The position numbers and the translations under genes are program-made. Below are positions 280-64,000 of a DNA stretch of 64,000 nucleotides, in pieces. The stretch spans positions 296,219 through 360,218 of the forward strand of contig JAAOMT010000760.1 of the NCBI GenBank assembly GCA_016748015.1. The letters run 5' to 3'. The DNA comes from Geosiphon pyriformis uo1 (taxonomy: Eukaryota > Fungi > Glomeromycota). Every line of letters begins with the position of its first letter. The stretch's first letter is position 1. A model generated the notes under the pieces. It worked only from the letters and a program-made list of their open reading frames with translations, searched no databases and had not been told where the DNA came from.

Positions 280-1242
280 TGTTACTGGAGGTTTTTGGTC
301 TCTTTTCTTAAATGTTGTTGATGTTTGTTTGCTGTGGATTCCCGTTTTCTGGATGTGGTTGAACTTCCAGTAACTGAATTTATCTTCAAATTATCTTCTA
401 TAATTTGAACTGCTGGGCTTATAAGTGGAATGGCCAATTCCGTGCCAGTTACTTTGTATAGTTACATTGTAGTAAATGTCAACTCTTTCCCAAGAATTGC
501 TCATCTGGAAGCTCACTAAAAATGTATAGTTACTTTGCTGTGAAAGTTAACTTTTCTACAGGAATTCTCGTCTGTAGACTACTCAAAATGATTTATAATA
601 AGAAAAGAAAGAGAATAAAAGAAATGTAAAAGAAAAAGTAAAACTGATGATTTATGGAAGTTATTTCGGATCCAGGCCTGAAAGTGCTTTAACAGTCTAC
701 TGAAATTGGTAGCTAATCAATTTCAAACTGTTAGTAGGAATTGGTTAATTTTAAGGGAAATAATTAAGAATTTGGCTTTTCGAATTATTTGATATTTATT
801 TGTCTTTTGGGTGTAGAGAATTATTCTAATTGTTTAAATCTGAAGTAAAATACATTTTCTCAAAGAGAGACACTCTTTTTTTATACAACTTGTCATAACA
901 CTATTCTATGAACTCGAACTTTGCTATTTTCTACAATTTTGCTAAACTAAAGATATATTTCAGTAAACTACAAGTTATTTCTGTGAACTATTAGATATTT
1001 TGGTGAACTATCAATTATTTCGGCAAATTTCTACAAATTTCGGCAAACTTTTTGAATGTTACATAGTTCAGGGTATTGCATGATTAATCATCGCAATTAG
1101 GTTACATTTGTGTTATATACAAATTGGGTTATTAATTAAATGATAATTTCGGACATTTTGCTAATATAATAAGTGATAATTTGAAATGATAATATATGTT
1201 AATTAATGATGAGAATTATAATAATAATTTCATCTGGTAACA
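280..1242 (-). repeat. 3' LTR of A
   Basis: Near-identical to 18935-19921 and adjacent to the PPT. Has a ~25-bp deletion between short TAATTTC direct repeats near 1230. Confidence 0.93.
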
Positions 1243-7987: not shown

Positions 7988-8545
7988 TGTTACCAGAGGT
8001 TTTTGGTCTTTTTTCTTGAATGTTGTTAATGTTTGTTTGCTGTGAATTCACGTTTTCTGGATGTGGTTGAACCTCCAATAACTGAATTTATCTTCAAATT
8101 ATCTCCTATAATTTGAACTTACTGGGCTTATAAGTGGAATGACCAATTCCGTGCCAGTTGCTTTATGTAGTTACATTGTAGTAAACATCAACTCTTTCTC
8201 AGAAATTGCTTGTCTGAAAGCTCACTAAAAATGTGTAGTTACTTTGCTGTGAAAGTCAACTCTTCTACAGAAATCTTGTCTGTAGGCTACCCTAATGATT
8301 GTAATAAGAAAAGAAAAGAAAAATAAAAGAAATGTAAAAGAAATAGAATTCTGTCAAGGAAAACGTTTTCTATCCAGGCCTGGAGTCACTAACAGTTTAC
8401 TGAAATTGGTAGCTAATCAATTTCGAAATGTTAGTTGGGTTTTTGGGGGTTTTTCTAAGTACAATAATTAAAGAATTTGGTTTTTCAGATTATTTGATAT
8501 TTATTTCTTTTTGTGTATATAGGAATGGTTTTCAGAGATAAATCT
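7988..8545 (-). repeat. 3' LTR of B (partial, runs into assembly gap)
   Basis: Matches the first ~560 nt of 16767-17748. Confidence 0.9.
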
Positions 8546-16766: not shown

Positions 16767-17748
16767 TGTTACCAGAGGTTTTTGGTCTCTTTTCTTGAAT
16801 GTTGTTAATGTTTGTTTGCTGTGAATTCACGTTTTTTGGATGTGGTTGAACCTCCAATAACTGAATTTATCTTCAAATTATCTCCTATAATTTGAACTTG
16901 CTGGGCTTATGAGTGGAATGGCCAATTCTATGCTAGTTGCTTTATGTAGTTACGTTGTAGTAAACATCAACTCTTTCCCAGAAATTGCTTGTTTGGAAGC
17001 TCACTAAAAATGTGTAGTTACTTTGCTGTGAAAGTCAACTCTTCTACAGGAATCTCGTCTGTAGGCTACCTTAATGATTATAATAAGAAAAGAAAAAAAA
17101 AATAAAAGAAATGTAAAAAAAATAGAATTCTGTCAAGGAAAACGTTTTCTATCCAGGCCTGGAGTCACTAACAGTTTACTGAAATTGGTAGCTAATCAAT
17201 TTCGAAATGTTAGTTGGGTTTTTGGGGGTTTTTCTAAGTACAATAATTAAAGAATTTGGTTTTTTGAATTATTTAATATTTATTTCTTTTTGTGTATATA
17301 GGAACAGTTTTAAGAGATAAATCTAAAGTAAGATACATTTTCTCGAAGAGAGATGCTTTTCTTTTATACAACTTGTCATAACACTATTCTATGAACTTGA
17401 ACTTTGCTATTTTCTACAATTTCGCTGAACTAAAAATACATTTCAGCAAACTACAAGTTATTTTTGCGAACTATTAGATATTTCGGTGAACTATCAATTA
17501 TTTTGGTGAATTTCTACAAATTTCGGCAAACTTTTAAATGTTACATAGTTTGGGATATTGCATAATTTGATCATCGCAATTAGGTTACATTTGTGTTGTG
17601 TACAAATTGGGTTATTAATTAAATAATAATTTTGGACATTTTGCTAATGTAATAAGTGATAATTTGAAATAATAATATATGCTAATTAATGATAGGATTT
17701 ATAAGATAATTTCATGCTAAATAATATCTCTAATTTTGTCTGGTAACA
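16767..17748 (-). repeat. 5' LTR of B
   Basis: TGTTAC...GTAACA, 982 bp, followed on the minus strand by the PBS. Confidence 0.95.
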
Positions 17749-18934: not shown

Positions 18935-19921
18935 TGTTACTGGAGGTTTTTGGTCTCTTTTCTTAAATGTTGTTGATGTCTGTTTGCTGTGAATTCCTGT
19001 TTTTTGGATGTGGTTGAACCTCCAGTAACTGAATTTATCTTCAAATTATCTCCTATAATTTGAACTGCTGGGCTTATAAGTAGAATGGCCAATTCCATGC
19101 CAGTTACTTTGTATAGTTACATTGTAGTAAATGTCAACTCTTTCCCAGGAATTGCTCGTCTGGAAGCTCACTAAAAATGTATAGTTACTTTGCTGTGAAA
19201 GTTAACTTTTCTACAAGAATTCTCGTTTGTAGGCTACCCAAAATGATTTATAATAAGAAAAAAAATAAAATAAAAGAAATGTAAAAGAAAAAGTAAAACT
19301 AATAATTTATGGAAGTCATTTCGGATCCAGGCCTAGAAGTGCTTTAACAGTCTACTGAAATTGGTAGCTAATCAATTTCAAACTGTTAGTAGGAATTGGT
19401 TAATTTCAAGAAAAATAATTAAGAATTTGGCTTTTCAAATTATTTGATATTTATTTGTCTTTTGGGTGTAAAGGATTATTCTAATTGTTTAAATCTGAAA
19501 TAAAATACATTTTCTCAAAGAGAGACACTCTTCTTTTATACAACTTGTTGTAACATTATTCTATGAACTCAAACTTTGCTATTTTCTACAATTTTGCTGA
19601 ACTAAAGATACATTTCGACGAACTACAAGTTATTTCTGCAAACTATTAGATATTTCGGTGAACTATCAATTATTTCGGCAAATTTTTACAAATTTTGGCA
19701 AACTTTTTGAATGTTACATAGTTTGGGGTATTGCATGATTGATTATCACAATTAGGTTACATTTGTGTCATATACAAATTGGGTTATTAATTAAATAATA
19801 ATTTCGAACATTTTGCTAATGTAATAAGTGATAATTTGAAATGATAATATATGTTAATTAATAATGGGAATTATAATAATAATTTCATGCTAAATAATAT
19901 CTCTAATTTCGTCTGGTAACA
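18935..19921 (-). repeat. 5' LTR of A
   Basis: Pairs with 280-1242. Confidence 0.95.
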
Positions 19922-20111: not shown

Positions 20112-20863
20112 TATTACAGATGATTATATTGGGTCTCAAAGCAAATAACAAATCCATAATGTGGTGCTTAATTGATATATTGATCTTGGTTTCTGAAGGT
20201 TTTTTTTATTGAGCCCTTTGTATAATGGACAGAAATTCAATTGTTGTTTCAGTAGCCTTCCAGAATCACAATTCTGTTGAATTTTTTTCTCAGTGTGGTG
20301 ACTGGTAATTCTTCTGGTAAGCTATTTTCAATTATGAGTGTTCTACCCTTGTTTTATAGGTCTTTTACTAATTCCTATAATGTCTGTAACTTAGCACTTT
20401 AATTCTTTTTGATTAGTAAAACAAAAAAAAATAACAAAGAAAAATAAAAGAAAATAAAGAAATAAGCCAAGGCAATTACAAGTTAGTATTCTTTTAATAG
20501 CCATAATCAAGAGCTATTGTTCCAATATGGTTAAGTATCAACTTCTATCAACATAAAATGTTAATAGTGGAGTGGATTTGAGATAGTAAATAATTATTTA
20601 TTGATATTTGTGATGTGGAAGGTTGTTTAGATGAAATTTAAACTGAAAGATCTGTCTTTTTTTCTTCTAATACTACTACTATATATACAAAATTGATGTT
20701 CTATAAGATTACTCACATTCCTGAACAATGTGCTATGATTTCTTGAACAATGTGCTATGGTTTTTGACATTGCTTTATATTGCTGAGCAATGTGCTTATG
20801 TGCTAATTACTACTTTCCTATTGGTCTACTATTTTCTATATCTGTTTTTTTTTATGAATAACA
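20112..20863 (-). repeat. 5' LTR of C
   Basis: Reverse-complement homolog of the D LTR, with decayed TGTTAC/GTAACA termini. Confidence 0.85.
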
Positions 20864-22352: not shown

Positions 22353-23161
22353 TGTTACTCATAAAAAAAAAACAGATATAGAGAAAATAGTAGACCAATA
22401 AGTGAATAGTATTTAGCACATGAGCACATTACTCAACAATATAGAACAATGACAGAAATTATGGCACATTGCTCAAGAAATCATAGTACATTGTTCAGGA
22501 TTGTGAACGATCTCATAGAACATCAATTATGTATATATAGCAGTAGTGTTAGAAGTAGAAAAGGAGAATCTTTTCATTAAAAACCTTCCAGCTTAGATTT
22601 TATTGAAGTGATCTTCCAATACACAAATATCAATAAATAATTATTCTCTATCTCAAATTTACTATTCACTATCAACACTTCATGTTGATAGTAATTGATA
22701 CTTAACCACACTGGAACAATAGCTCTTAATCACAACTATTAACAGAATACTAATTTGCAATTGCTTTTACTTATTTCTTTATTTTCTTTTATTTTCTTTT
22801 ATTTTCTTTTATTATTTCTTTGGTTTTACTGAAATTGATTAAGGATTAAGTGCTGAGATACAAACATCATAGGAACTGGTAAAAGACCTGTGAAACAAGG
22901 GTAGAACACTCATAGATTTGAGGATAGCTTACTAGGAGGATTACCGGTCACCACGTTGAGAAAGAAATTTGATGAAACTGTGGTTTCAAGAAGCTATAGA
23001 TAAAACCATCAATTAAAATCTCTGTTCATTATACAAAGAACTCCACAACAAAACCTTTAGATAAACTACACCTTTAGATATCATGAACACTAACAAATCA
23101 ATTAAGCACCAAGTTACAAATTTGTTATTTGCTTTGAGACCCCAAATAAACACCTGTAACA
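22353..23161 (+). repeat. 5' LTR of D
   Basis: TGTTAC...TGTAACA followed by TTTGGTGCT. Confidence 0.93.
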
Positions 23162-23163
23162 TT

Positions 23164-23181
23164 TGGTGCTTCCTGTAAAGT
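23164..23181 (+). promoter_or_regulatory. Primer binding site of D
   Basis: TGGTGCTTCCTGTAAAGT. Confidence 0.85.
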
Positions 23182-23223: not shown

Positions 23224-23872
23224 GTGGCAAAATCCAAAAACATAGGAGCAAACCATTTAGGATTCACCAAATTCTTGTTTCAACAGTACAGCCAACAATT
23301 AAGATTAAACAATAACCATTTTTCAGCAGAATTAGTCTTCAACTTCTACATTAATGACAAAATCACAGACTGCTTAAGAGGAACAGTTAATATTGAATCC
23401 ACAAGAAAAAATTTCTATACAGAATTATTTCAACATATCAGTTTACTAAGAAATTACAGTTTTACACCAATTATCAGGGAAATCAATTAAACCATTGAAA
23501 GATACACACAACAACAATTCTCAATTACCTATGCAGACAAAAAAAAAGGAAGACTACAAACACCAACAGCAACACCAAAAGGAACACAACTATCTACTTG
23601 GAAGAAAACCAGAGTTGAATCACCAACAAATCCATCATACTATTATACCTTAGGAAGTGCCATTAACATTTCATCAACAGATGCATCTACATCACATGTG
23701 ACATCAACATTTGGATGACTCCCATTTCAAAGTAAACAAAAGAAAGCAGAATTACTGGAAACCTATGGCAATTATTTTGAAAGATTTAAATTGCAATTGC
23801 CAATGCTATCAGGATTCTAATCACCACCACCTCAACCAGATTTCAGAAATGTGAGTCCTTAGGAGATAACAG
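23224..23872 (+). pseudogene. gag: Gag N-terminal part of D
   Basis: GTG-AKSKNIGANHLGF..., homologous to F gag; continues at 44342. Confidence 0.88.
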
Positions 23873-24385: not shown

Positions 24386-24855
24386 TTAATATCATCAATC
24401 ACTGTGATCAAGAGTGATTGGTCCAAGTTGTTAATGGTTCGAGGTGATTATGCTAAGAGCATCTGTCCTAGAACGGAGGTAAGAGACAATAAATTCAATT
24501 GAAACATAGATGTTTAGAGAACAGAGGTTTGCAATTTTGAATATACAATTTATTTAGAAATATGTATATAAGCTAAAAGATAAAAGAATAAAGAAAATTG
24601 ATTCTTGTCTAACTGTCTATTTTTTTCTAGCTTTTATAACTACTCGTTTTTATACATTTTTTTGGTTTTACAGGATTGCTTACAATTGTTATGTTATCAC
24701 TAGCTATTGCTTTGTTATTTCTGTTATTGCTTCATTATTCTATGTTATTGCTAGTTATCTTGTGTTATAACACATTATCTGGCATTATTACATGCTATTC
24801 TGTATTATCCTATGTTATAATGTTTTATCCTGCATTATTCTAAGTTATAATACAT
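23873..24855 (-). repeat. 3' LTR of E, left segment (remainder at 35120-35225)
   Basis: Matches 43286-44240. Contains a long A tract and a 20-N gap (24310-24329). Confidence 0.9.
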
Positions 24856-25810
24856 TGTTATTCATAGAATATAGGAAATATAGTATTATTAGTCAGTAGA
24901 TATTAGCCAATCAGATGTAGATGTAGTAAATGTGGAATTCCAAGATTCCTTTCAGAGAAATTGCAGGATTCCCTGACGAGGAATCACAGGATTCCAGAAT
25001 TCCAGGATTTCTCTCATCAGGAATCACAAGATTCCAAGAATTCCAGGATTCTTGTCACAAGGAATTGAGGAATTAAGGAATCTCAAATATATATATATAG
25101 CAGTAGCATTAGAAGCAGAAAAAATAGAATCAACACTAAGAATTCTTAGCTTAGTTACTACAATCCTCAAATAAATAATTATTTACTATATCAAATTCAT
25201 TCTCCACTATCAACACTTCATGTTGATGGTAATTAATACTTAACCATACTGGAACAATAGTTCTTGATCATGGCTATTGATGGGATACTAACTTGCAAAT
25301 TGCCTTGGCTTATTTTTTATTTTCTCTTTTATCTTTCTTTATTTTCTTTGTTGTCTACTGATTTGATTAAAGGATTTACTCTTGGAGGACTTATAGAGGA
25401 ATAAAACTTACTTAAAAATACTTACTCTTGAAGGACTTATGAAGGAATAAACTTGCTTAAACAATACTTACTCTTGGAGGACTTACAGAGGAATAAACTT
25501 GCTTAAACAATACATACTCTTGGAAAACTTACAGAGGAACTGACATCAAGAAACAGCACTGGTATACACTTACGGAGGATATCGTACCAGAAGAATCATG
25601 AACCATTAAGCTAAGCAAGCAATCAATAAAACTACAGTTTCAGAAAACTACTAATAAACTGTTATAATTGAATCTCTGTCCATTATACAAAGAACTCGAT
25701 TGGAAAACCTTCAGATCAAATACCTTCAGATTATCATTGTCACTAATTGCCTTGAGCACCAAGTTATGAATTTGTTATTTTATTAACACCCCAAAGAATC
25801 ACTTGTAACA
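24856..25810 (+). repeat. 5' LTR of F
   Basis: Pairs with 34209-35119. CCAAT near 24907, (TA)n TATA-like element at 25088-25099. Confidence 0.94.
25376..25540 (+). repeat. 46-bp tandem repeat (about 3.6 units) in the F 5' LTR
   Basis: Unit TTACTCTTGGAGGACTTACAGAGGAATAAACTTGCTTAAACAATAC; about 2.6 units in the 3' LTR (34746-34864). Confidence 0.9.
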
Positions 25811-25812: not shown

Positions 25813-25830
25813 TGGTGCTCCTTGTGAGAT
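25813..25830 (+). promoter_or_regulatory. Primer binding site of F
   Basis: TGGTGCTCCTTGTGAGAT, complementary to a tRNA ending ...CUCACAAGGAGCACCA. Elongator Met or Ile(UAU) are candidates, not verified. Confidence 0.85.
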
Positions 25831-25869
25831 ATAATCCTACAGAGAACCAGTACCAACACAAATCTAAAC

Positions 25870-34208: not shown

Positions 34209-35119
34209 TGTTACTCATAGAATATAAAAAATATAGTATTATTAGTCAGTAAATATTAGCCAATCAGATGTAGATGTAATAAATGTGGAATTTTAGGATT
34301 TCTTTCAGAGGAATTGCAGGATTCCAGGAATTTCAGGATTTCCAGATGAGGAATTACAGGATTCCAGAATTCCAGAATTTCTCTTATTAGGAATCGCAAG
34401 ATTCCAGGAATTCCAGGATTCTTGTTGCAAGGAATTGAGAAATTGAGGAATCTCAAATATATATATATAGCAGTAGCGTTAGAAGCAGAAAAGACAGAAT
34501 CGACACCAAAAATTTTTAGCTTAGTTACCACAATCCTCAAATAAATAATTATTTATTATATCAAATTCATTCTCCACTATCAACACTTCATGTTGATGGT
34601 AACTAATACTTAACCATACTGGAACAATAGTTCTTGATCACGGCTATTGACGGAATACTAACTTGTAAATTGCCTTGGCTTATTTTTTATTTTCTCTTTT
34701 ATCTTTCTTTATTTTCTTTGTTGTCTACTGACTTGATTAAAGAATTTACTCTTAGAGGACTTATGGAGGAATAAAACTTACTTAAAAATACTTATTCTTG
34801 GAGGACTTACGGAGGAATAAACTTGCTTAAACAATACTTACTCTTGGAGGACTTACAGAGGAACTGACGTTAGGAAACAGCACTGATATACACTTACGGA
34901 GGATATTGTACCAGGAGAATTATCAACTATCAAGCTGAGCAAGCAATTGACGAAACTATGGTTTCAGAAAACTATTAATAAACTGTTACCATTGAATCTC
35001 TGTCCATTATACAAAAAACTTGATTGGAAAACCTTCAGATTATCATTGTCACTAATTGTCTTGAGCACCAAATTATGGGTTTGTTATTTCATTAACACCC
35101 CAAAGAATCACTTGTAACA
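34209..35119 (+). repeat. 3' LTR of F
   Basis: Follows the PPT AAAAGAAGGGAATAA. Confidence 0.94.
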
Positions 35120-43758: not shown

Positions 43759-44341
43759 AAAAGAAAAAATTAGTATTGTCAATCACCATGATCAAGAGCA
43801 ATTGGTTTAAGTTGTTAATAGTTCGAGGTGATTATGCTAAGAGCATCTGTCCTAAAATAAAGGTAGAAGACAATAAATTTAATTGAAACATAGATGTTTG
43901 GAGAACAGGAGTTTGTGATTTTGAATATACAATTTATTTAGGAATATGTGTATAAGCTAAAAGATGAGAGAGTAAAGAAAATTGATTCTTGTCTAGCTGT
44001 CTGTCTTTTTCTAGCTTCTATAACTACTCGTTTTTATACATTCTTTTGGTTTTACAGGATTGTTTACAATTGTTATGTTATTACTAGCTATTGCTTTGTT
44101 ATTTCTGTTATTGCTTTATTATTCTATGTTATTGCTAGTTATCTTGTATTATAACACATTATCTGGTATTATTACATGCTATTCTGTGTTATTCTACATT
44201 ATAACATTTTATCCTGTGTTATCTTAAGTTATAATGCATTATTCCATGTTATTGCATATTATTCTGTGTTATGTCATGTTTTGTTCATGTTTTGGTCATG
44301 TTTTTCTCATAACTCGGATCAGTTTTTCTATTCAGATAACA
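43286..44341 (-). repeat. 5' LTR of E
   Basis: 1056 bp; pairs with the split LTR 23873-24855 plus 35120-35225. Confidence 0.92.
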
Positions 44342-47300: not shown

Positions 47301-49898
47301 CCCACCAAAGAGGAACAAAAGCAATGCCTAGAACAATTAAATACTTGACTATATTAATACTGCTTAATTCTTTGTGACTTCCAATATTGTAATAAGTGTG
47401 ACCTCATTTACAATCCACCACCATACATGATCTACATGATCCCAGAAAAAGAACCAATTAGCAACTGCACATTAAAATCATAATCAGTTTTCAATCCCAA
47501 TTCAAACTCCAACAATGATGACAATGAAAACACTGGTTCCAGTTCCACTCAATATGACAACAAAAATAACAACAATTTGGACTCCAATTCAAATCCCAAA
47601 ACCTATATCACACTCCCTAATCTTACCAAGGAACAAGAACTGAAATGGTTCAGTGATAATAACAAAGGTATCATGCCTAAACATGCACATGATACTGATG
47701 TAGGGTTTGACCTGAAATATCCAGAGAAAGATTCCATCAAATTAGAACCACATTTACGCACTTGTATTGATCTAAAAATAGCACTGGAAATTCCAGCAAC
47801 AACAATGATTCAACTAGCATCTAGGAATAGTTTAGCAAAAAAGAGGATTAACATCAGAAGAAGAATAATTGACACAGGATATGTAGGAAATATCATTGCT
47901 ATGCTATAAAATAACTCAGAAAAAGCATATGTCATAGATCTAAATGAAAAGATAGCACAGACAATATTCCTACCTCTGGTGAAAATAGTTCAGTAAGTGT
48001 CAGTAGGAAACAGAGAAGAATTAGAGATCACAGCTAGAGAGATACAAGGATTTGGATTAACAAGTAGAATAGATGTACCAATTAATATGGCAGAGGAAGA
48101 AGTTATTGACAAAGAAGAAATTATCTCAACCTGTCAATTAATTTCTATTCCACCATATAATCAGTATATGTTAGTCATAAAAAGAGAAGTAAAGAATCAA
48201 GCTCAGTTGTTCAAAGCAGAAGCCACTATTTGTGAATCAGGAGAAATTAGACTCACCAATCTTTACATATTAGCCAAAAGCCCCAAAAATATCAAAATTC
48301 CCATCTACAACACAACAGAAAATGTCATTGAAATACCAAAGGAAACTATCATTGAATATTTAACCACTGAAATTAAGGATCAACCACCAAACCACATTCC
48401 AAATTTTCTACAACTGTGCAAATATGTGGATATTACATCACAAACAATCTACAGACAAGAAGAATATTATCTGCTCCAGCCAGAACAATTAGAACAAATG
48501 AATTTAGGAAACTTAGACCCACTTTAATGAATGCAACTGAAGATGTTACTCAATAACTTCAATGATATCTTTGCTAGCAAAAATAAATTTGGCCGAACCA
48601 ACATCATTCAGCATCAGATCAAAACTGGAGATGCAATGCCAATTAAACAAAAAGCATACAAAGTACTACCAGCTAGCCATGAGATTATTTGTCAAAAAAT
48701 CAACCAGATGCTTGACAATGGGCTAATTCAGCCATCAATGAGTCCATGGTCATCACCAGTGGTACTAGTCTGGAAAAAGAATAAAAAGATCCATTTTTGT
48801 GTGGATTATTGAAAACTGAATGGAGTAACCAAAGGAGATAGCTATCTAACTCCAAAGATCCAAGAACTATTTGATGCTTTTGGTGGAAATAAATGGTTCT
48901 CAACATTAAATCTAGATAGTGGTTACTGACAAGTAGTCATGAATTCAGCTAACAAAAAAAAGACTGTATTCACAACAAGAAAAGGGAATTTTGAGTTTGA
49001 AGTCATGCCATTTGGCTTGATGAATGCTTTAGCCACATTCCAATGGCTTATGGAAATTGTTTATACTGAACTACTATAGAAATCAGTAGTCATATACTTA
49101 GATAACACCAATGTGTTCTCAAAAACATTTGATGATTATCTGCATTATCTCTAACAAGTATTTGAAAAGTTAAGAAGAGCTGGATTGAAACTAAATGCAA
49201 CTAAATGTTTCTTTGAAAAAACGGAACTCAAGTTTTTGGGACATGTGGTGAGCAAAGATGGAATCAAAACAGATCCAAACAAAATTGAAGTAGTTAAAAA
49301 CTTTCTAGTACCAATCAACTTGCCAGAACTAAGAACATTTTTGGAATTCGCAGGCTATTATTGCCACTTTATTAAGGACTTTTTTAAACTAGCTCAGCCA
49401 CTTTACCATCTACAGGCCAAAAATGTGAAGTATAAATGAACCAAAGCTCAACAAGAAGCATTTGATACATTAAGAAGAAAGCTTATTTAAGCTCTAGTAT
49501 TAATATATCCAAATCACAGCAAACCATTCATAATCACCACCAATACATTAGGCCAAGCATTAAGAGCAGTACTATTACAGAGAGGACCAGATGAAAGAGA
49601 ATATCCAGTAGTTTATGCCAGTAGAAGCTTAAGTCCAGCTGAAAAAAATTATAGAACTCCAGAATTAGAGCACTTAGCTATCTATTGGGCCATCACCAAA
49701 TGGAAAAAATACTTAAGCCAAAAGTTTGATGTTTATACTAATCACAAAAGATTAACTTCAATCCAAAAACAAGAATTTGGAGACAATTGTCATGCAAGAT
49801 AGAAAATAGCAATATCATCATATACATTTATAGTACACTATAAAAAGGAAAAAAACAATGGAAATGCCAACAGTTTGTTGTGAATAAGACAAATCTAA
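44342..49898 (+). pseudogene. gag-pol: Remainder of Gag-PR-Cys-rich-dUTPase-RT-RNase H of D
   Basis: Collinear with F; dUTPase about 47640-48065, RT about 48600-49450; ends ...RQI*. Confidence 0.9.
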
Positions 49899-51367: not shown

Positions 51368-52003
51368 ATAGAAATACCAGATTATATTCATACTATAGCT
51401 TAACAATTATTTCAGGCCTTAAGTCAACAACTTTTAGACATGAAAATTATTGTTAACAACCAAACAATTTGCTATCAAAACACCAAAAAAAAGACAAAGA
51501 ATACACCATATTAGCGGTTACCAAAGAATAATAAAAACTGGTCAAATAACATAATAGAAAAAATAAAAAACACTTTTGGGAAAATACCTATTATAGTACC
51601 AACAGAAGAACTTACAAAAGAGAATTGAAAACAATGAACAGAACAACTTCTAATATCATACTGTTACTACTAGTTAGGTCGAAAGTTGAATATTCAGGAG
51701 TTGTATATTAACAAATCCAAGAAAATATTTAACCAAAACATAATACAACAAATTGAAGACTTTATTGAAAAGAAGACAAACTTAATACTACATGTGAGAA
51801 CAATTTACTGACTGCACAACATATTTTAGAATTATCCAGAAATATTGTTATATTTTGACATAGAAACTATAATCATTAACCAATAAAAAAAAATAAACAA
51901 TGTACAAGTAGAAAACATGAAAAATAAAGTCAAACAAACAATATTAAAAAAAGAAGTATTAGAGCTAATTCAGAATGAAGATTTCAACAGAGCTCAATAT
52001 TAA
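51368..52003 (+). pseudogene. ORF3 of D
   Basis: (M>I)EIPDYIHTIA(Q)QLFQAL...DFNRAQY* ending at the PPT. Confidence 0.75.
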
Positions 52004-52017
52004 AAAGAAAGAGATAA

Positions 52018-52926
52018 TGTTACTTATAAAAAGAAAACAGATATAGAAAAAATAGTAGACCAATAAGTGAATAGTATTTAACACGTGAGCACATTGCTCA
52101 GCAATATAGAGCAATAACAGAAATCATGGCATATTGTTCAGCAATGTGGAACAATATCAGAAAGCATGGCACATTACTCAGCAATATGGAGCAATGTTAG
52201 AAAATTAGGGCATATTGTTCAGCAATGTGAGTATTGCTTAAGAAATCATAGCACATTACTTGGAATTGTGAGTGATCTCGTAGAACATCAATTATGTATA
52301 TATAACAGTAGTGTTAGAAGTAAAAAAAAAGAATTCTTCTATTAAAGACCTTCCAGCTTAGATTTTATTAAAGCAACCTTCCAATGCACAAATATCAATA
52401 AATAATTATTCTCTATCTCAAATTCACTATTTACTATCAACACTTTATGTTGATAGTAATTGATACTTAACTACCCTGAAACAATAGCTCTTGATCACAG
52501 CTATTGATGGGATACTAATTTGCAATTGCTTTTACTCATTTTTTTATTTTCTTTTATTTTCTTTTATTTTCTTTTGTTATTTCTTTGGTTTTACTAAAAT
52601 TGATTAAGAATTAAGTGCTAAGATACAGACATCATAGAGACTGGTAAAAGACCTGTGAAACAAGAATAAAACACTCATAGATTTGAGGATAGCTTACCAA
52701 GAAGATTACCAGCCACCATGCTGAGAAAAAAATTTGACAAAACTGCAGTTTTGGGAAGCTACAAATAAAACCATCAATTAAAATCTCTGTCCATTATACA
52801 AAGAACTCCACAACAAAACCTTCAGATAAACTACACCTTCAGATATCATCAACATTAACAAATTAATTAAGCACCAAGTTATGAATTTATTATTTGCTTT
52901 TAGACTCTAAATAAACACCTGTAACA
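52018..52926 (+). repeat. 3' LTR of D
   Basis: Pairs with 22353-23161; about 100 bp longer from extra ~40-bp U3 repeat units (52088-52260). Confidence 0.93.
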
Positions 52927-54617
52927 TTGGGACATTTAGCTAACAGTTTACAACTCCATAACTCTGTGCTTGAATAACTCACCAAAAATTCCATTAGCAT
53001 TAGCAAAACTAATTAAGCCAGCCAACAGATTTTTAGTCAGCATTTGCTTAAAAGTCCTTAAATTATATAGCTCTAGATAATATAAAGCTTTATTTGGAAA
53101 ATCCTTGGGCAGATTGGCCTTGAGCTTCAATTTTTTCCTTAATATTTTGTCTTACTTCTTATATACACTCTTTAAAACACAACTAAACTGCAGTCTATAA
53201 TCAATTATGGGTTGTAAAACAGCAAAAACCAAATACAAAAACTGCTTTTCAGTAATGGCTTTCCTCAAAACCACATTTGAAAAGAATCTGACATCTGAAT
53301 AAGCTTTGGCTAAGCTCAGCTTTAACAGACTATCTGTAGAAAAAAAAATTCCTGAGTATTAATAAAACTTATGCCTTTTGATAATAAAGATATTAAAGCC
53401 ACTAATAGATAGTGAAACCTCTTTAACTCCTTAATTAATAAGAATGGTAACTGTTTTATTTGTATTAATAAAAATATCATTAATTAAAAAAAATTTACTT
53501 GCAATGTTCAAAATACATTGTGTAGGCACCATGCAATTTTCAACCCAAATAGTGTTATCCACAAAGGCACTAGCTGTAAAAAAAGAAGCTTTGCCATCTT
53601 TAGAGTTCACTTTATCAGTCCTTGTGAAAAATTTTAAACTCAATTTGTAATCATATAATTGCTTATGTCTTTTGATCTTACAAAGCAAAGGATTATAGAA
53701 AATTCTCCACAACAATGGTAAAAAGACTTCTTCTTAATCCAATTCATTGTGAATAGTATATTCATCAATTAGTTCAAAGTCTGTCATTACCTAGTTGATT
53801 TGATTATTGTGTACACTTCCAAAAAATTTTATAAAATAGAGATACATCTTAATTTTAATTAAGCTGTTTTACAAATAAAACCAACCAACTGAGTCATAGA
53901 CTTTTCACATGTCTTGAAAAACTAATCACAGCTCTCTGTTCTTTTCTAACATATTCTCAATAATAAAACCAATAGCAAAAATCAGAGCTTAAGTGAACAT
54001 ATCTTTCAGAACTGAAAAATTATTGCCATAAAAAACCTTAAATTTACTACAAGCCAGAGATATTCTGTCAGAAAGAATTTTGAACAGTATCTTCTGGGCT
54101 GTTTTGATCAAGACTATAGGTCTGATATTGGTGAGTGTCCCTTTCCAATTATATGGCTTTGGTATCATAGAGACTCAAGCCTGTTTCTACTATAAGGTTA
54201 CTGTGTCTAACACTAAACATGCATTAAAAATATTCAACAAATCACTTAGAATTTGAGTATCTTCATGCTTTCAAAGTTTGTTAGGAATACCAGAAATACC
54301 AGCAGCTTTTCCATTAGACAATTTTTTAACCACTAAAAGAAACTTATCAAACTTAATTTTACACATAATATTTAAAAATACATTATTATTAACATAGTCC
54401 AAAGAAACATATTGATTAAATCAATGAGCAGGCAAAGAGTTGGAAACAACATGTTTCCTTGTTTATTCTTCTATAATAACATTAACAACAGATTTAACTT
54501 TATCAGGCACTAAAATTAACTTGTTATTTACTATTAAATAGTTGAGCACAACTTTTTTAAATGATCATTCCAAAACACTTTTGATCATACATCTTTTATT
54601 AGAACAAAAGTTTTTCA
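52927..54617 (-). mobile_element. LINE 1 ORF2, reverse transcriptase region
   Basis: LWRIFYNPLL, AFVD(D>N)TIW, KAAGISGIPN, RPIVLI; homologous to LINE 2 RT. Confidence 0.88.
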
Positions 54618-55449
54618 TGTTACTCTTAAAATATAGGAAGTATATTAACATATAAATTAGCCAATCAGAAGTAGCCATAGTAAATGTGGAATTCCAAGAT
54701 TCTTCTCAAAGAAATTGCAAGATTCTAGGAATTTCAGAATTTTTATACAAGGAATCACAAGATTCCAGAATTCCAGGATTTCTCTTAAAGAGATTGCAGA
54801 ATTCCAGAAATTCCAGAGTTCCTGGTATAAAGAATTGAGAAATCAAAGAATCTCAATTATGTATATATAGCAATAGTATTAAAAGTAGAAAAGACAGATC
54901 TCTCAGTTTAGATTTCATCTAAGCAATTTTCGAAATAACAAATATCAATAAATAATTATTTGTTATTTCAATCTACTCTCTACTATTAATACTTCATGTT
55001 AATAGTAATTAATACTTAACTACACTGAAACAATAGCTCTTGATCATGGCTATTGATAGAATACTAACATTTATTGCCTTGGCTTATTTTTTTTTTTCTT
55101 TTATTTTCTTTTTTTTTTCTTTTATTTTGTTATTTTTTGTTGTTAACTAATTGATTAAGGATTAAAGCATTAAGTTATTGATGTCAAGAATTGCTTGGTA
55201 AAAGACCCCTGTAAGTAGATAGAACATGTAAAAAATATGGATTGCTTACTAAAAGATTGCCAGCCATCAAGCCAAAAAAAGAATTGCCAGAATTGTGATT
55301 CCAGAAGACTATTAAAACAACTATTGAATCTCTGTCTATTATATAAAAGACTCCACCAAAACCTTCAGATTATAACAATCATATTAATTATTAGCACCAA
55401 GTTATAGATTTGTTATTTGATTCGAGGCTCCAAATAATTATCTGTAATA
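54618..55449 (+). mobile_element. Solo LTR G inserted in LINE 1
   Basis: TGTTAC...TGTAATA with no PBS after it; LINE ORF2 rejoins across it. TSD is degenerate (CCAT-like). Confidence 0.85.
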
Positions 55450-56699
55450 TTATCCATTTGCCTATTGTCTTCTTGATAAAAATGTCCCTAGCAATTTTAG
55501 ACTTGTAATATTTGGATCTTTGGTACACTTTTTTGACTCTTAACAGGTGTTAAAAAATGTTTTTTTTTGCTCTCACTATTACTAAATATTATGTGTACTT
55601 TAAAGACCTCCTTATTATCGAGAGTAGATTACACATTAAAAAAGCATTTGGTTTCTGCTTCCTGATTTGAGCTTAAACATTTTACCAACTTGGTTATTAG
55701 CAATTTCAGCCTAAAAAACTTTGAAGACTGCTTATTTTTTGAACAATTAAACTCACTAAACCAGTACTTAAAAAACACTTTATTGGCAGAGCTTATTATT
55801 ATCTTCTTAAGGATTTTCTACATAGTATCTAAATTTTTAACATTCTTTACACCATTGAATTTGTCCATCTTCTCCAAAAATCTGCATAGTGAATATACTC
55901 TAAAGTGTGACTACTTATTGACATCTATATCTTTAATCTTGAACTTCCACTTATCCTTGTTAGCCTGCATACAATCACCATTAAAACAGGTATTTAAGAG
56001 ATCACTCAGACCAACTAAAACCAAAACAACATTATGATTAATGTCAAAAAATTCAGAAACAGAAACAACTTTATAATTGGCCACTGCAAATAACAAACTT
56101 TTGCTCATAAAAATATAATTGATAACCTTTATGGCATTATTCAAGTTGTTTCAAGTAGAAGCTTTGACTAATAAATATCCACTAAAGGAATTGACCAAGT
56201 CCAAATCCGAGCAGAACATAAAACTTGTACTTTTTCTAGATCTATTTTTATTGAAATCTCTACTTAAAATTATGAATGTAAAGGAATTAATGGCCTTAGC
56301 AATAAAAAAATTGATTTCAAAAGATTGACTAAATCTGGTCTTAGTAAAAGCACCAGCATATAAGCTTAAAATTACTACTAATAGCTTGTTTTTAAAAAAA
56401 AGCCAAACAGAAACAAGCTAATCAAGAACTTCTTTAACCTTAGAAACATGATACACAAGAGAATTCATAATAATCACCACCCCAGCACCAAAAAACTCTT
56501 TGTCTAAGCTAGAAAAAAATATTTTTACTTTATCAAATTTGTTTATGATCCATGGCCTGATACTAGACCTTAACTTTATTTCTGTAATAATAGAAACCAT
56601 ACTTTCAAATTCTATATGCCAATAAACAATGTTTTCTTGCTTGGCAGAGACATTGATACTTCAAACATTGTACATAGCAAATTTTCAAACCAGATCCAT
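55450..56699 (-). pseudogene. LINE 1 ORF2 N-terminus (apurinic-like endonuclease)
   Basis: ATG at 56699, MDLV(W)KFAM.NV..IN, SIITE, GAGV, IDYIF/DH-like remnants. Confidence 0.8.
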
Positions 56700-56701: not shown

Positions 56702-58530
56702 TTAAGAAAAACAAATAATAGGAACCAAACCAGTATTGTTTATTTTAGCTAAAAAGCCCATAACTGTGATTGACAAATTGTTCAAAGTTTCTTCCATTTT
56801 TGAGATAACTAAAGAATCAAAAACCACTGTTTCTACAATATTTTTATTACTAGTAACTACACTTAAACTTTCACTTATTACTATATTCATCCCTTGATTT
56901 TGTGATGAAAGAATTATCAACAGCTAATATCCAGGACTAAACTAAGAAACTGTTGGCCCAAGTATGTCCAATCTCTTAGCCAACTTGTTAACACATTTTA
57001 TGAGACTGACAAAACTATGTTCAAGAGCAGCAAACCTATTGTTCAATTTCATAAACATCATCAGGACAGGTTTTATTTCCAAAGAGGAACTAGGAGCAGC
57101 TAAGTTATTATATACTAGAAGAAAAAAGAATGAAAACTTACCAACAATTTTGGCCTAAGAGACATCACCAAAAGAAACAGAATAGGAGATTGGAGCAGAA
57201 CATTTAACATAAATGAATGCCAGCCTGCTTTTATTATTATCTAACAGTATTCTGTAAGATGGGCCACCAAGAAATAATTTCTTATATATAGAACAGTTTA
57301 AAAAAGTATGACCCAATTTTTTATACTTAGTATATTTAGCAAAAACCAAACAAGACCAGCACAAATTAACACTTCTTAAAACAGGTGTAGTTTTCATAAC
57401 AGTGTCTAGTGAATCAGCCAAATCAAAACAAACAACAACACATCTGGTTTGGGCATACATAACAGGGTGTTAATTGATAACACAAGTCTTCTTACCCACA
57501 AAACCAATAAAGTTCCAAATGTTATAAGCATTGATGCCCATCAGCAATATATAGAGCAGTGCCCTATATTGATCTTTTGTGTTCCATGATTTCTTATTTA
57601 TATTAGTCTTAGCTACCTTTATGGCATTTTTCTCAATTAAAATAGACCATCTAGCTGCAACCAAATCAGTCTGATCCAAATAGGTAAACTCTATCACAGC
57701 TTTTTGTCACAGTTCTACCAATTGTATTTTGATTGACACAATAGCACCAAACTCAGAAAGCACAGTGCACACAGCCTTAGCTAAAATACCAATTAGGATC
57801 TCTTTTAATACCACAGCCCAATCTGAATAACCAATAGATTTTCTAAGATCATTGTTTACTAAGATTTTTACCATCTTTGTCATATCTGAAGCTTAAGCCA
57901 AGCTTGATTCAGAAGTGAATGTTGTTCTGACAATCTCAGCAAATTTTAAAGGAGTAAAAACCTCTCCAAAACCATTAATACCTGAAAATAATTTCCTAAC
58001 CAATATGCATTTTTCTTAAAACATTTTTTCAGGAATATTATTCAGCCCAATATTTAAAGCAAAAAATTTATGAACAAAAACATTGACCAAATTTTTTAAG
58101 AGAAAAGAGAGTTTCAGAGAAGTATTGAAAAAATTTCATCATCATTACCACTACTTAAGAAAATAATTTTCCCTAATGACTTATTCAATGCCTTCTTGGT
58201 TTTGATTTACAAATCTTTAAGCATTTGATCAGGATCCCTATTAACAAAAACACTACCTTCATCATAATCAAAGCTGGTTTTTTTTACCAAGCACTCCTTC
58301 TCTATATCAATACTATTAGACTCAGTGGTATTACCAGTTTTTAAACTCCATGAACAATCATCTTGAATTTTAGCCAAAACTTTTTTATTATTGACACCAT
58401 TTTTCAAAGCACCACTTCTTTTTTTCTTTCTTAGTAAAACAGTTTTGAAGCCACCATTAAAGCCAGAATCTTTAACAGTTTTTTTTATAACAGCAATACT
58501 AAAGCCAATAATAGTCTCATAATCAAACAC
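56702..58530 (-). pseudogene. LINE 1 ORF1 (RRM-like regions plus decayed CCHC knuckle)
   Basis: VAARWSILI, RALLY, RCVVVCFD, KYTKYKKLGHTFLNC (decayed CxxCxxxGHxxxxC); stop directly before the ORF2 ATG. Confidence 0.75.
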
Positions 58531-58559
58531 AAATGGTTTGAATTTATTATATTGAATTG

Positions 58560-60290
58560 TAAAAAAACTTCTTTCAAAAAACTTTTTTGACCCTTTTTTG
58601 GGAATTTGGAATGAAAGAGAGAAAGAAGTTTTTTTTTTAAAATTTTTTTTATTATAATACTCTTATTATTTATTAATTTAGTTATAATTATTATCATTTT
58701 TTCAGAAATAAAAAATGTTTAAATTATTTTACCAAATTTTAAGAAAATAAAAATCTTCTAGAATTATTTATATCAAAAAATATATTTTTAATAGTTTTTT
58801 AAAAAAAATATATAATTATTCAAAATATTATTATTATTACTATTAATATCAAAGTTAATTTATTTAAAAAAATTTTTAAACACATATTTTGTCACAATTT
58901 TTGGCTTTTTAAGAGTTATATTAATATTTTTTGGCTTTAATTTATCTTTATTTTCAAGCTAAAAACTGGTTTTTTCTATTAAAAACTTTTTTTTTATGTT
59001 TATACTTTTTAACTTTGTGGTGTTTTTAGTATTTAAACCAATGTTACTTATAAAAAAAAAGTACAAAATAAAAATAAGAAAAACAGATTATAAAATAAAC
59101 TAATAGGAGAATAGTACTCAATAAATAAACACATTTTTAGAAAATTATAACATATTTTTAGAAATGAGCATATTTCCAATAAGTAGTATAGAAAAAAAGC
59201 AAAAATGTATAGAATTTTATATAACATAAATTATATATATAGTGAGAGTATTAGAAACAGAAAAAACAAAAAAAAAGTTAGAAACAAATAATTATTAAAA
59301 TATCTTTTTTTTTAAAAGATAATTTTTTATAATTTGAAAAAAAATCATATCCATATTAATAAAAATATCTATTACTATCCAATTTATATTGTCATTACTT
59401 GATTAAAAAATATTAATTACTTTCATATTATCAACAATTTATGTTGATAAAATTTAATATGTAATTATATTGAATCAATAACTCTTAATTATCTTAAATA
59501 ATTACTTGTAATATTAGTTATATTATTAGTTAAATCAATATTTTAAAAAGTATTTATATTGATTCCAATAATTGGTTTTTTTAAAATATTATTTTTGTAT
59601 TTTTTTTAGCATTTAAATTAGTTATAATTAAATTAATATTAGATTTTTTCTTAATTTTTTTTATATTTAAATCACTAATAATATTAATAATTTTGTATTT
59701 AAATAAAAAAGATTATAAAATATTAAATTAAATAATAAAATATATAAAAAACCAAAAAAACTTCTTTTAAAATTATTATTTTTTGAAAAATTTTTGGATA
59801 AATAAAAACAAGAAGTTTTATTATTATTAATATTATTATTTTTTATTTTAATATGTAAAATCTAATTATTATTTAATATGATATAATAAACTAAATATTT
59901 TAAATTAAATATAACTTATGTAATTTTTATATATAATTAAATATATAAACTTAATTAAAATTAAATTATATTAAATTAACAAAAGTTAAAAGTAAATTTA
60001 ATTTACTAAATTTATTAATATAATTATTTAAATTTTAATTATTAAAAATAAACCTACTTAAAAACAATTTAGTTTTTTTATATTATGTTTAATATTAAAA
60101 TTATTTATTTATTATAGTATTATTAAATATTTAAAAATTAAATTATTTAATAAAAATATTATAAAAATATTAATTTTAATATTATCTATTTAATTAAAAT
60201 TTATTTTAATTTTAAAACAGATTTTATTAATACAATTAAATTAAAAATTTAAGATTTCAAAAAATTTAAATTTAAATTAATTTTTTTATT
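58560..60290. other. Extremely AT-rich low-complexity tract
   Basis: Almost devoid of G and C; contains relic H. Confidence 0.85.
59042..59513 (+). mobile_element. Highly decayed, internally deleted solo LTR H (C/D-like)
   Basis: TGTTACTTATAAAA start, TATA/GTATTAGAA block, TATCAACA-TGTTGATA hairpin, ACTTGTAATA end. Flanks CCAA/TTAG are compatible with a CCAG TSD. Confidence 0.6.
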
Positions 60291-63200
60291 ATAAGTTTTA
60301 CGAATAAAGCCCAACCACTATCTAATACATAGAATCAAACTAAGTAGAACCAACTAAATACAGTTTATATACAGACCACATATGGCCAGCCACTCAGACC
60401 AAACAAGACAACACTATACATCTATAATAACAAAAGCATCATCACTCAAACCAGAGAAAAAATGACACAATTTGCACCTACCAAACTTAACAGCAAAAGA
60501 TTCTATAACACCAAGTATGTGAAACTATACTGCTAGACAAGCCAGAAATCACACTATTATTTCTAACCAAACCAATCTTTTCTATTTCTGCTTTATGCTT
60601 GGTCCTAACAGTCTATATTTGAGTATACTACAACTTCACCACAAATCTGATATATTCTACTAAGGTCTGAATAGCTTTTTTTTTTCCCTCAAAAACTGAA
60701 ACAGCTTCAGCATACCAATCTCTCATTACAAAATCCTTGTATACTGCTGTATAAAGACTCATATTCAAAGAACATGATGAGAATGAAAGCAAAATAGCAA
60801 ACAGAAATAAACTCGAAAGACTAGACATTGACATCCATTTTTCAGTAGCTTCAACCAAAATGTCCCCATGGAGACCAGAGTTACCAGAACAAGTAAAAAC
60901 ATGATTAGAGAACTCTATCTCATCACACAGCAAACACAAAACATCAGGATAACTTCTGCTATACAACCTTTTTTTAATTGCAACCAGCAGTTACTTATAT
61001 ATAGCTTTCATCAAATACATGCATAAATTGGCTGACTTCCTACTGGTGAACCCAGAAAGCATGTGTGAATCAGGATGCCAAATTGTTGCAGTAGCATCCC
61101 AATCTATTTTTTTAATCATAATATTCGGAACTATATTAAAACCTAGACCAGCCTCCCAATGGGCACAGCATATCAACCGATATAAGTCCCAAGCAAAATG
61201 ACAAACATTGTCAGATATGGCAGTTTTCTCAGCAACTAGAAACCTTTTCCGGATATTAACTGGCAAAGAAAGGGATAAAAAAGTAGTCTCATTAGCCAGC
61301 ACATCAGTCTTTATGTTGCCCAATACATCTAAATGTCTTTTAACCTTTACCCACTTAATTGAAATATTCTTGTTTTTAAAAAAATTGACAACTTGCAATC
61401 TTTCAATCCAACATTAATTACAGAAGTCAGGTGTAGTCAAAGAAGCCTCGGAAATACAGGCATTAATCGCAAATTAACTATCTAAGTACAAAATCACTGA
61501 GCAAGAAGATAGAACACACTCCAAGGCCAACATTACAGCTTGCAGTTCAGCTAAAGTAGAAAACAAAAGTCCAGCAATCTTAACTCCAATGTCCGTGTTT
61601 GCAGCCAGAAAGTATGCAGCTGCTCTATCTGCTGCCTCAACAGAACCAGCACATTTCAAAGACCTATCTGTATAAATCTCAATACAATCAGACCACACCT
61701 CTAGTAGACTATCATGAACTTCAGAGAACCTATTAGAATTCAAAACACTCAGCACATTCTTCTTAGTAGCAGTAGCAGTTCTAAACCCCAAAGAAATATA
61801 ATTGTTCATAAAATTAAACATCAAAGAAAACCAGTAAGGCACAGGGCCTCTTAGGTCCAACTGCTTCTAACGCCAAAATGTTTTTCAGTCCATCATCTTT
61901 TCTTTCTTGTCAAGAATTCTGTCACCAAAAGCAACACCAAAATGCTTCAATGAAAAAACGGACTTGTAATACAAAGACTAATCCAAAATGTCAGACATTA
62001 GAAAATCACCAGGCCCACGAAAGGCACAAAATAAATTGTTTGTTAAAGATAATTCATTCTCCAAAAAAATCTTCACCACCCCTGCCAAGAAATTGTTAAC
62101 AGGACTAACATACAACCTAACAGGGAATTGTAAAAGATTCAAAGAAGACCATCTCAGAACTTGCAAATCCAAAAATCTATGATTAAATAAATGGCCAAGA
62201 ATGCCATGACCATTAGAAAATGAAATCAGTAATGCCAGTTTTCTTTCAAATTGCACTTGCTCAAAGAGCTTCAAATCATATAAAAAAAGGTAGTACAAAA
62301 CCTCACTGAGGAAGTCACATGGTAAACTAGCTTTGGCTCTAAGACCTTTTCTAATTATAATATCCCACTTATGACACACATCTAAAGTAACAAAACTGAA
62401 CTGTGCACGATAGCTAACAATAGGCTACAAAATTGCCAAAACCAAATAACAGAATTGTTTGTCTATAATAGTTTTTTGTAACACTATATTAGAAAAAAAC
62501 CTGATATTTTTATGGGCTTGAGCCAAACTGGGCTTAGAGAAATCCTCAGTTGACAGAAAGATACCCAAATATTGGTGTAACTCACCCTTTTTAGCAATTG
62601 AAATTGGCAATCCATTGATTAATAGCGAAGCATTCTTAATCCCTCCCCCCAATTGATAGAAATCACTACCATTTTATCATCATTAATTGAGATGTTATTG
62701 ATTACAAAAAATTCACTTGCAATATTTAAAATATACTGTGTAGATGTTTGACTACTTTTAATCCAAATCATATTATTAACAAAAGCATCTGCAACCAAAA
62801 AGAAGGTTTTTTCTCCACTTGCCTCAATCCTGTCAGACTTTGCTATAAACTTAGAATCAATTCTATACTCACATAATTGCTTATGCCTTTTTATTTCACA
62901 CAAAAGTAGATCATAAAATATTCTCTAAAGCAGTGGGAAAAAGATCTCCCCTTAATCTAACTTATCATGTACTTTATAACCATCCAAAAGCCCAAAGTTA
63001 ATCATTACTTTGTTAACCTGGTCTCTATGAATGTTGCCAAAAAATTGGATGAAATGTCCACACATTTTGATGCAATGCAAGCTTGCTTGCAAATGATGCC
63101 AGCCTACTGAATCATAAGCTTTGCACATATTCTGTAGCACTAACCAGAACTCTTTGTTTTTCTCCAAAGCATTCTCAACAACTAAGCCAATAGCAAAAAT

Positions 63201-64000
63201 AGGAGACTGGGTCAAAGTACCCTTTAACACTAAAAAATTGTTACCACAAAGAACATTAAACTTGCTACAAGCCAAAAATATCTGATCAGATAGGATCTTA
63301 GATAGTATTTTACATGCTGTCTTGACCAAAGCGATAGGTCTGGTATTTGTCAGAATACTATTCCACTCATAAGGTTTTGGAATCATTGAAACCCATGCTT
63401 CTTTTCACAGATTAGGAACTGCATCCATACTCAAGCACAAATTCAACAAATTCAAAAGACAAGCCAAAACCTCCCTACCATAATGCTTCCAAAGTTCATT
63501 AGATATTCTAGATAACCTGGCTGCTTTATCATTCAGCAGATTATCAACAACCAGAAACAATTCCTCCATATCAATATCAACTATTACACCAGAGAAAGTA
63601 TTATCATCTACATAATCCAGAGGCATATATTGTTGAGCCCAGAGGTCAGGTATTTTTGGAAAAACTGATTGTTTTCTTGTCCACTCTTCCATAATTTTAT
63701 CAATCTTGAGTTTCACCTTATTAGGCTCAATTACCAGCTCATTATCCATTACCAAATGATCCAAAACCACCTTGTGAAATAGACATTTCAAAATGCTTTT
63801 TATCATCTTTTTTTTGTCAGAACAGAAGTTTTCCATACAATAGTCAATTGTCTTTCTTATAGCAGTATCTTCAACAATCTTAGACTCATAATACTTGGAC
63901 TTATGATACTCTTTTTTTATTACCAACAAATGCTTAATCAACTTCATTGAGCTTACATTGTTCAAAACCATGCTATTAACCTTGGAAGCTTTGACTACAT
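60280..64000 (-). mobile_element. LINE 2 (3' part of ORF2: RT, RNase H, Cys motif, 3' UTR)
   Basis: RT NTRPIALV, KAYDSV, AFV(DD); RNase H IYTD(G)S, AELQAV, YLDS, WVKVK.H; CLLCDEIE..HVFTC. Stop at 60365-60367 and A-rich 3' end near 60280. Confidence 0.9.

Follow-up and report, generated by a model that had tools for sequence, protein, structure and literature searches.

We asked whether a short hairpin with a palindromic loop, which recurs in the long terminal repeats (LTRs) of a 64,000-nucleotide stretch of Geosiphon pyriformis DNA (the window), initiates RNA dimerization, and whether its palindrome separates the retrotransposons that carry it. The first-pass annotation of this DNA had compared the loop with the dimerization initiation site (DIS) of HIV-1 and had read it as a kissing-loop code separating LTR families.

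Elements of the window and placement of the hairpin

The window consists of nested, decayed Ty3/gypsy LTR retrotransposons; its GC content is 32% and its CpG observed/expected ratio 0.19. The genome is reported as 41% LTR sequence (PMC11952901). LTR pairs and boundaries were obtained from self-comparison of the window and are listed as elements A to G in Table 1. TG...CA LTR ends, a primer binding site (PBS), a polypurine tract (PPT), and the order gag-PR-RT-IN were present, and Pfam and tblastn placed Retrotrans_gag/Ty3_capsid, zf-CCHC, protease, dUTPase, RVT_1, and Integrase_H2C2 domains in that order, with all coding regions of these elements interrupted by stops. The best 120 of 588 matches to a dUTPase-bearing ORF were all Geosiphon pyriformis proteins. 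The two LTRs of D differed by 85 transitions and 3 transversions and those of F by 68 and 3; differences made up almost solely of transitions indicate post-insertion decay. For the minus-strand elements A, B, C, and E, the reverse complement quoted in the first-pass annotation is the sense strand.

Table 1. Coordinates of the LTRs, the hairpin copies, and neighboring motifs in the window. Unpaired probabilities are predictions for the palindrome in the leader context; z scores refer to the hairpin.
Feature	Position	Strand	Remarks
Element A LTRs	280-1242 (3'), 18935-19921 (5')	-	
Element B LTRs	7988-gap (3'), 16767-17748 (5')	-	nested in A
C, 5' LTR	20112-20863	-	
Element D LTRs	22353-23161 (5'), 52018-52926 (3')	+	
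D 3' LTR	52018..52926	+	TGTTA...TAACA ends; polypurine tract just before
Element E LTRs	3' LTR with hairpin 24396-24420; 5' LTR with hairpin 43780-43804	-	nested in D
Element F LTRs	24856-25810 (5'), 34209-35119 (3')	+	nested in 3' LTR of E
G, solo LTR	54618-55449	+	
TATA-box-like motif, D3	52297..52305	+	kept in all LTR families; putative in function; contig depth peak
AATAAA, likely poly(A) signal, D3	52397..52402	+	79-102 nt past the TATA motif in A-G
Hairpin 1, C/D/F/G type	52431..52459	+	12-bp stem, 5-nt non-palindromic loop
Hairpin, D 3' LTR (D3)	52482..52506	+	8-bp stem, loop CU-UGAUCA-C, palindrome 52492-52497; unpaired 0.96; z -3.28
Hairpin, D 5' LTR (D5)	22717..22741	+	decayed, palindrome broken, hairpin fold lost
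Hairpin, C 5' LTR (C5)	20495..20519	-	decayed, loop UGAUUA
Hairpin, F 5' LTR (F5)	25255..25279	+	two G-U pairs; unpaired 0.78
Hairpin, F 3' LTR (F3)	34625..34649	+	unpaired 0.70
Hairpin, G solo LTR	55031..55055	+	unpaired 0.95
Hairpin, E 3' LTR (E3)	24396..24420	-	D-type loop, stem altered; unpaired 0.78
Hairpin, E 5' LTR (E5)	43780..43804	-	CAATTGCT-CTTGATCAT-GGTGATTG, three G-U pairs, unlike the E3 sequence; unpaired 0.51
Hairpin, A 5' LTR (A5)	19345..19388	-	upper stem 19356-19380, loop AU-UAGCUA-C; unpaired 0.97; z -3.49
Hairpin, A 3' LTR	701..725	-	same hairpin as A5
Hairpin, B 5' LTR (B5)	17180..17204	-	A-type loop, lower stem re-paired; unpaired 0.97; z -3.76
Hairpin, B 3' LTR	8401..8425	-	A-type loop
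12-nt GC-rich palindrome TCCAGGCCTGGA	17152..17163, also 8373-8384	-	~20 nt after the A/B hairpin
TACTAAY motif, then U-rich tract, D3	52513..52590	+	AG-free for ~105 nt after the hairpin
PBS after D 5' LTR	23162..23180	+	TTTGGTGC..., ~420 nt 3' of the hairpin

Each family showed a repeat-rich U3, a TATA-like motif, AATAAA, the palindrome, and a U-rich tract in this order; the palindrome followed the TATA motif by 172-246 nt, the hairpin lay 75-145 nt after AATAAA, and the LTR end and PBS were at least 400 nt further on. Four metagenomic relatives had the same TATA-AATAAA order. The hairpin is probably located in U5, as it lies downstream of the conserved TATA and AATAAA motifs, which would mark the transcript ends. 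If the TATA motif is the promoter and AATAAA the poly(A) signal, transcription would start after the former and polyadenylation would follow the latter, and the hairpin would thus be present once per transcript, in the 5' leader of the genomic RNA upstream of the PBS. An AU-only palindrome, 10-18 nt long, overlaps AATAAA in C, D, F, and G (52397-52411 and equivalents) and could fold over the poly(A) signal.

A hairpin so placed might control splicing of the leader, i.e., the TACTAAY motif, the U tract, and the AG-free stretch would form a 3' splice site tuned by the hairpin, which could itself be intronic. In C, D, F, G, and E5, the TACTAAY motif comes after the hairpin, and AG-free runs of ~85-120 nt span the U tract, that of E5 ending in TTTCTGTGTAG. 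However, TACTAAY precedes the hairpin in A and B, the D-type acceptor would be AAG, an intron-less LTR was absent among the 12 copies, and two contig joints were not GT-AG (the stretch concerned ended within the U tract). We regard splicing control as barely probable. Self-priming as in Tf1, in which case the hairpin would fall in U3, was likewise judged unlikely, since the PBS starts with TGG directly behind the LTR and its conservation extends past the U5-pairing part.

U5 can pair with the LTR end (23105-23172 (+), with equivalents in C, E, F, A, and B), and the same LTR-end pairing was observed in the relatives L004 (2875-2922), L029 (6384-6417), and L027 (435-468). In the window elements, a AGCACCAA(G/A)(C)GTTA motif lengthens this stem until it takes in the first half of the PBS (D5, -19.9 kcal/mol), where it would occlude the primer site; the relatives retain the LTR-end stem only.

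Integrity, conservation, and chance expectation

The hairpin was found in 12 of 12 LTR copies, each on the sense strand of its element, and all 12 sites cited in the first-pass annotation were located. The sequences quoted there were exact for D3 (52482), E3 (24396), and the A copies (701 and 19356), and the remaining copies deviate from them. F5, F3, and G (25255, 34625, and 55031) are 1-2 transitions away from the quoted sequence, which gives G-U pairs or an altered last loop base, and the upper stem of the B copies (8401 and 17180) comprises 7 bp followed by a C-A mismatch. The palindrome was intact in 10 of the 12 copies. It was broken by single decay-type transitions in C5 (TGATTA) and D5 (TAATCA), the two copies already described as decayed, and we estimate that two breaks in 12 approximate the expectation from 10-16% decay per C or G. 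The A/B stem, which in A5 reaches 16 bp in all with a 3-nt bulge when the lower stem is included, is unrelated to the D/E stem. As the first-pass annotation had stated, the 2+6+1 loop geometry is common to both stems, and the 6-nt palindrome differs.

We compared the hairpins between families. D3 and E3 were identical at 21 of 25 hairpin positions and at 9 of 9 loop positions, while the LTRs overall were 42% identical; this places the hairpin in the top 0.8% of windows. It was also the best D-E local alignment, with a score reached in 2 and 1 of 1000 shuffles. In the alignment of eight copies, 95.5% of 88 cells were paired and two pairs were altered on both sides, levels reached by 12 and 142 of 500 shuffles, respectively, counts that are not probabilities. 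One of the double-sided pairs is attributable to decay of a CpG present on each arm, which took opposite courses in E3 and E5, and one clean compensatory change (A-U/C-G) is left. The covariation proposed earlier for the E stem was thus weaker than stated. A and B have in common an unchanged 27-nt core with diverged sequence on either side, and a re-paired lower stem; this level of conservation is unremarkable, as 18.5% of windows were equally identical.

The 123 nt running from AATAAA through the end of the hairpin showed 82-87% identity with 1-3% transversions within C, D, F, and G. By comparison, U3 identity was 44-55% for (C, D) versus (F, G), and that of the next U5 segment 59-75% (pairs with D5 left out). 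As the whole block was conserved, unpaired parts included, the loop does not stand out within these four families. We then mapped the 4619 contigs of a single DNA run, which may be the source sample, to 52280-52560. Depth peaked at the TATA motif and AATAAA and was highest at the two hairpins (0.77-1.43 million; D-specific segment, 1-12 thousand), depth not being equal to copy number. Among 40 of the 70 variants of this D-type stretch, those within the hairpin were C-to-T at 52496 (16%) and 52498 (46%), the former at a rate similar to that of other C positions (18-23%). The other 30 variants include seven transversions, and rare loop variants may therefore exist.

A block conserved as a whole could also be a 3'-end signal, in which the hairpins loop out sequence and bring the U-rich element near the cleavage site or pause Pol II, the palindromes being incidental. 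The order AATAAA, hairpin or hairpins, and U tract is fixed in seven of seven families, the whole AATAAA-to-hairpin block is conserved, and a depth peak falls on AATAAA as well. However, such a signal leaves the 9/9 loop identity of D3 and E3 and the 2+6+1 palindromes in two different loops unexplained, and relatives with the same TATA-AATAAA layout have no hairpin. We consider a 3'-end signal unlikely.

At the DNA level, the sequence could serve a dimeric transcription factor as an inverted repeat or palindromic binding site close behind the promoter. The TATA motif is close by, both strands fold (the antisense strand with about equal stability and its loop closed to 5 nt), a homodimer site would covary too, and the D arm contains AACAAT, which we take to be an HMG-box-like motif. 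However, the hexamer is not centered on the dyad of the arms, tolerance of G-U-type differences is limited to the sense strand, and the A/B arms are unrelated to those of D/E. A DNA-level site is very unlikely in our view.

Chance was assessed on A5 and D3 with 2000 dinucleotide shuffles of the region from the TATA motif to the LTR end. A hairpin of at least 8 bp with any loop palindrome arose in 59/2000 (A5) and 69/2000 (D3) shuffles, and one with the 2+6+1 geometry in 2/2000 and 6/2000; the decayed E5 fails the strict stem filter of this test. In A5 and D3, the hairpin was the sole one of at least 8 bp with an open 7-11-nt loop between the TATA motif and the LTR end. A scan of the whole window returned 128 hairpins with 9-nt loops on the plus strand and 114 on the minus strand, and all nine listed matches with a palindrome at offset 2 were LTR copies on the sense strand. 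It may still be argued that other reasons lie behind the conservation of the D/E hairpin and that the A/B match is a coincidence picked by eye: ~3% of shuffles per LTR contain a loop palindrome of some kind, every LTR holds another strong hairpin whose loop is non-palindromic, and the lineages number two. The exact geometry, polarity, and position in 0.1% of shuffles speak against this, and we hold it to be highly improbable. With D as the discovery and A as the test case, coincidence of the geometry is unlikely, though n = 2 lineages.

Next, we searched beyond the window. Exact hairpin patterns had no matches in viral contigs or prokaryote genomes, and Rfam had none in 52000-55600. RT searches of viral contigs yielded 0, 2, 0, and 1 loci, none useful. 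Metagenomes yielded 84 RT relatives, of which 80 were kept (identity 53-58%); 37 of 83 loci were scanned for LTR features, and seven were examined closely. Among these seven, the post-TATA LTR was complete in three (L004, L027, and L029) and partial in one (L017), and a comparable hairpin was absent from all three complete LTRs and from the partial one, their leaders holding weak candidates only (-2 to -3 kcal/mol). A covariance model built on the eight C-G copies gave one match (E 1.2) on 49 of 83 loci. The absence of the hairpin from 3/3 distant relatives with a complete post-TATA LTR indicates that it is not general to these gypsy elements, and these relatives serve as a negative control for the scan.

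The covariance model, a check suggested by the first-pass annotation for all LTR families, recovered its eight copies in the window and missed A and B. The best D3-A5 local alignment, reached by 21/1000 shuffles, placed an A arm on hairpin 1 of D. Homology of the A/B and D/E loops thus lacks support, the best alignment lying elsewhere and the C-G model missing A/B. Taken by comparison of copies, self-complementarity retained in two clades with two palindromes indicates that this is a real, selected RNA hairpin with a predicted exposed palindrome in two lineages.

Predicted dimerization and comparison with known systems

In the leader context, the palindrome was predicted to be unpaired at 0.70-0.97 in seven of the eight intact copies folded, and the minimum-energy fold of F5 and E5 was without the hairpin. 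Extended homodimers had a predicted gain of 10-12 kcal/mol over two monomers, as expected of any palindromic loop, and mixed dimers, D x A or D3 x E3, had essentially none. Each hexamer contains four A-U pairs; their ranks are 34 and 37 among 64, at ~-5 kcal/mol against -7.9 and -10.9 for HIV. In A and B, the GC-rich palindrome TCCAGGCCTGGA, which the first-pass annotation had not pointed out, is perfect in both B copies and has one C-to-T change in each A copy (19326-19337). Its predicted gain on dimerizing was 20 kcal/mol, and it may be a stronger dimer contact than the hairpin loop. A second GC-rich palindrome was looked for in the D/E type, and none was found.

We hypothesized that the 2+6+1 hairpin, likely in the 5' leader (U5), starts RNA dimerization through a kissing complex followed by an extended duplex, a reading to which we give an even chance. 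Two loops would kiss via their palindromes and then refold to a predicted 22-bp extended duplex. The Gag nucleocapsid would be needed as a chaperone for the AU-rich kiss and the duplex conversion, and the elements encode a CCHC zinc-knuckle Gag. As the kiss is predicted to be weak, a chaperone-assisted extended duplex is a plausible end state. In A and B, the neighboring 12-nt palindrome would add a second contact, as SL-A/SL-B do in MLV.

A weak kiss and pyrimidine flanks would also suit a Psi-like packaging hairpin, whose single-stranded loop is read by Gag or a host protein without loop-loop pairing. Loop and flank sequence are conserved between D and E, and a zinc-knuckle Gag is present; however, the self-complementarity of two different loops is not predicted by such a role, which we consider distinctly unlikely.

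Palindrome-led dimerization is already known for Ty1, Ty3, and retroviruses. According to PMC10483063, HIV-1 DIS loops such as AAGCGCGCA are 9-nt loops with a 6-nt palindrome arranged 2+6+1, in agreement with the first-pass annotation. The LTR hairpin resembles HIV-1 SL1/DIS in the predicted exposure of a 6-nt palindrome in a 9-nt apical loop of this geometry, in lineage-specific palindromes, and in the bulged lower stem of A/B. Three of four testable DIS features differ, i.e., the GC-rich core, the flanking purines, and the position. The DIS is GC-rich with a central G-C, whereas the LTR hexamers have four A-U pairs each and a central G-C in UAGCUA only; the DIS is purine-flanked, whereas the LTR loops (CU/C or AU/C) have at most one purine of three; and the DIS lies 3' of the PBS, whereas the LTR hairpin lies inside the LTR, ~420 nt or more 5' of it. 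HIV mutants with more than one A-U pair in the palindrome replicated poorly and depended on flanking purines (PMC5874298).

Ty3 belongs to the same superfamily (Metaviridae), and its DS/PAL6 is a 6-nt palindrome at the tip of a short hairpin for which kissing was proposed; PMC11381356 also lists UAGCUA as one of five palindromes not implicated. The Ty3 palindrome PAL6 is CUGCAG in GAG and was identified by SHAPE and deletion, whereas the LTR hairpin is non-coding and known from conservation alone. The palindromes PAL1/PAL2 of Ty1 lie in the 5' UTR and need Gag to dimerize (PMC6844567); they are likewise AU-rich, LTR-derived, and upstream of the PBS, but form the stem of SL1 rather than an exposed loop, and Ty1 is copia-type. 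In MLV, two neighboring palindromic elements, SL-A and SL-B, pass from a loose to an extended duplex (PMC5874298), similar to the pairing of the A/B hairpin with the 12-nt palindrome. MLV differs in its GACG tetraloops, which were not noted in the window, and the D/E type is without a second GC-rich palindrome. A possible UAGCUA loop in MLV SL-B found no confirmation in the sources consulted and was set aside.

Our literature search returned nothing on cis-elements of Geosiphon LTRs; subscription journals were largely outside it, and the genome paper was not among its results. Very few LTR retrotransposons have had their dimerization sites mapped (Ty1 and Ty3 in the sources consulted), by probing rather than comparison. 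The hairpin is a small, cheap test object, conserved across otherwise unalignable LTRs and with two mutually exclusive palindromes in sister clades; a test would show whether the lentiviral DIS geometry has a counterpart in fungal Metaviridae.

Two hexamers in two clades

UGAUCA is common to C, D, E, F, and G, and UAGCUA occurs in A and B. The palindrome had been described as family-specific and as a code separating families; the assignment was not supported, as seven families carry two words and five of them, with LTR identity of 42-64% in the pairs measured, share one. Any code would thus be clade-level. The five window RTs formed one clade among 125 sequences (FastTree support 0.958) that split into A+B (1.0) and D+F+E (0.94), C and G having no RT in the window. 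The hexamers track this tree, UAGCUA with A+B and UGAUCA with D+F+E. They differ at both inner pairs, and self-pairing is predicted at ~-5 kcal/mol each, against +1.6 for UGAUCA x UAGCUA. If dimerization proceeds as proposed, the hexamers would favor co-packaging among members of one clade rather than of one family. A stronger claim, that the clades use orthogonal kissing-loop passwords deciding co-packaging and recombination and thereby forming a reproductive barrier between lineages, is tentative, and we think it rather doubtful. If true, the HIV-1 2+6+1 geometry, but within the LTR, would separate co-resident gypsy clades of one fungal genome. A test would also show whether palindrome partner choice, known for HIV subtypes, structures transposon-family recombination.

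The solo LTR G is a mosaic, with a U3 78-81% like F and a TATA-AATAAA segment 78-85% like C/D; the switch lies at the TATA block, and a matching target-site duplication is absent. We rejected this mosaic as evidence of co-packaging because DNA-level recombination accounts for it equally well in a solo LTR without such a duplication.

The PBS sequence following TGGTGCT also differed by clade, being CTYCCAYRGAA in A/B and YYYTGTRAG in C/D/E/F (18910-18934 and 23162-23186), which suggests that different primer tRNAs may be used. The C/D/E/F sequence presumably resembles elongator tRNA-Met.

Several further features were observed in the window. The dUTPase domain lies between two protease-like regions, upstream of RT, in five of five elements (5331-6344 (-), 29534-30658 (+), and 47484-47909 (+)), and in A and B the region adjoining RT matches the spumavirus A9 protease model. 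In C, D, and F, an ORF without a Pfam match comes directly after the PBS and precedes the recognizable gag domain (25828-26370 (+) and 23182-23712 (+)). An additional ORF, also without a Pfam match, lies between integrase and the 3' LTR of A (1199-1642 (-)), and the relatives L010, L013, L014, and L017 have ORF-like sequence at the same place. The stretches 53216-54186, 61171-63404, and 21371-22039 hold pieces of another RT-bearing element and an unassigned ORF; they are mutually similar and unlike the gypsy RTs. Finally, 58000-60500 is extremely AT-rich, with a GC content of 12-22%.
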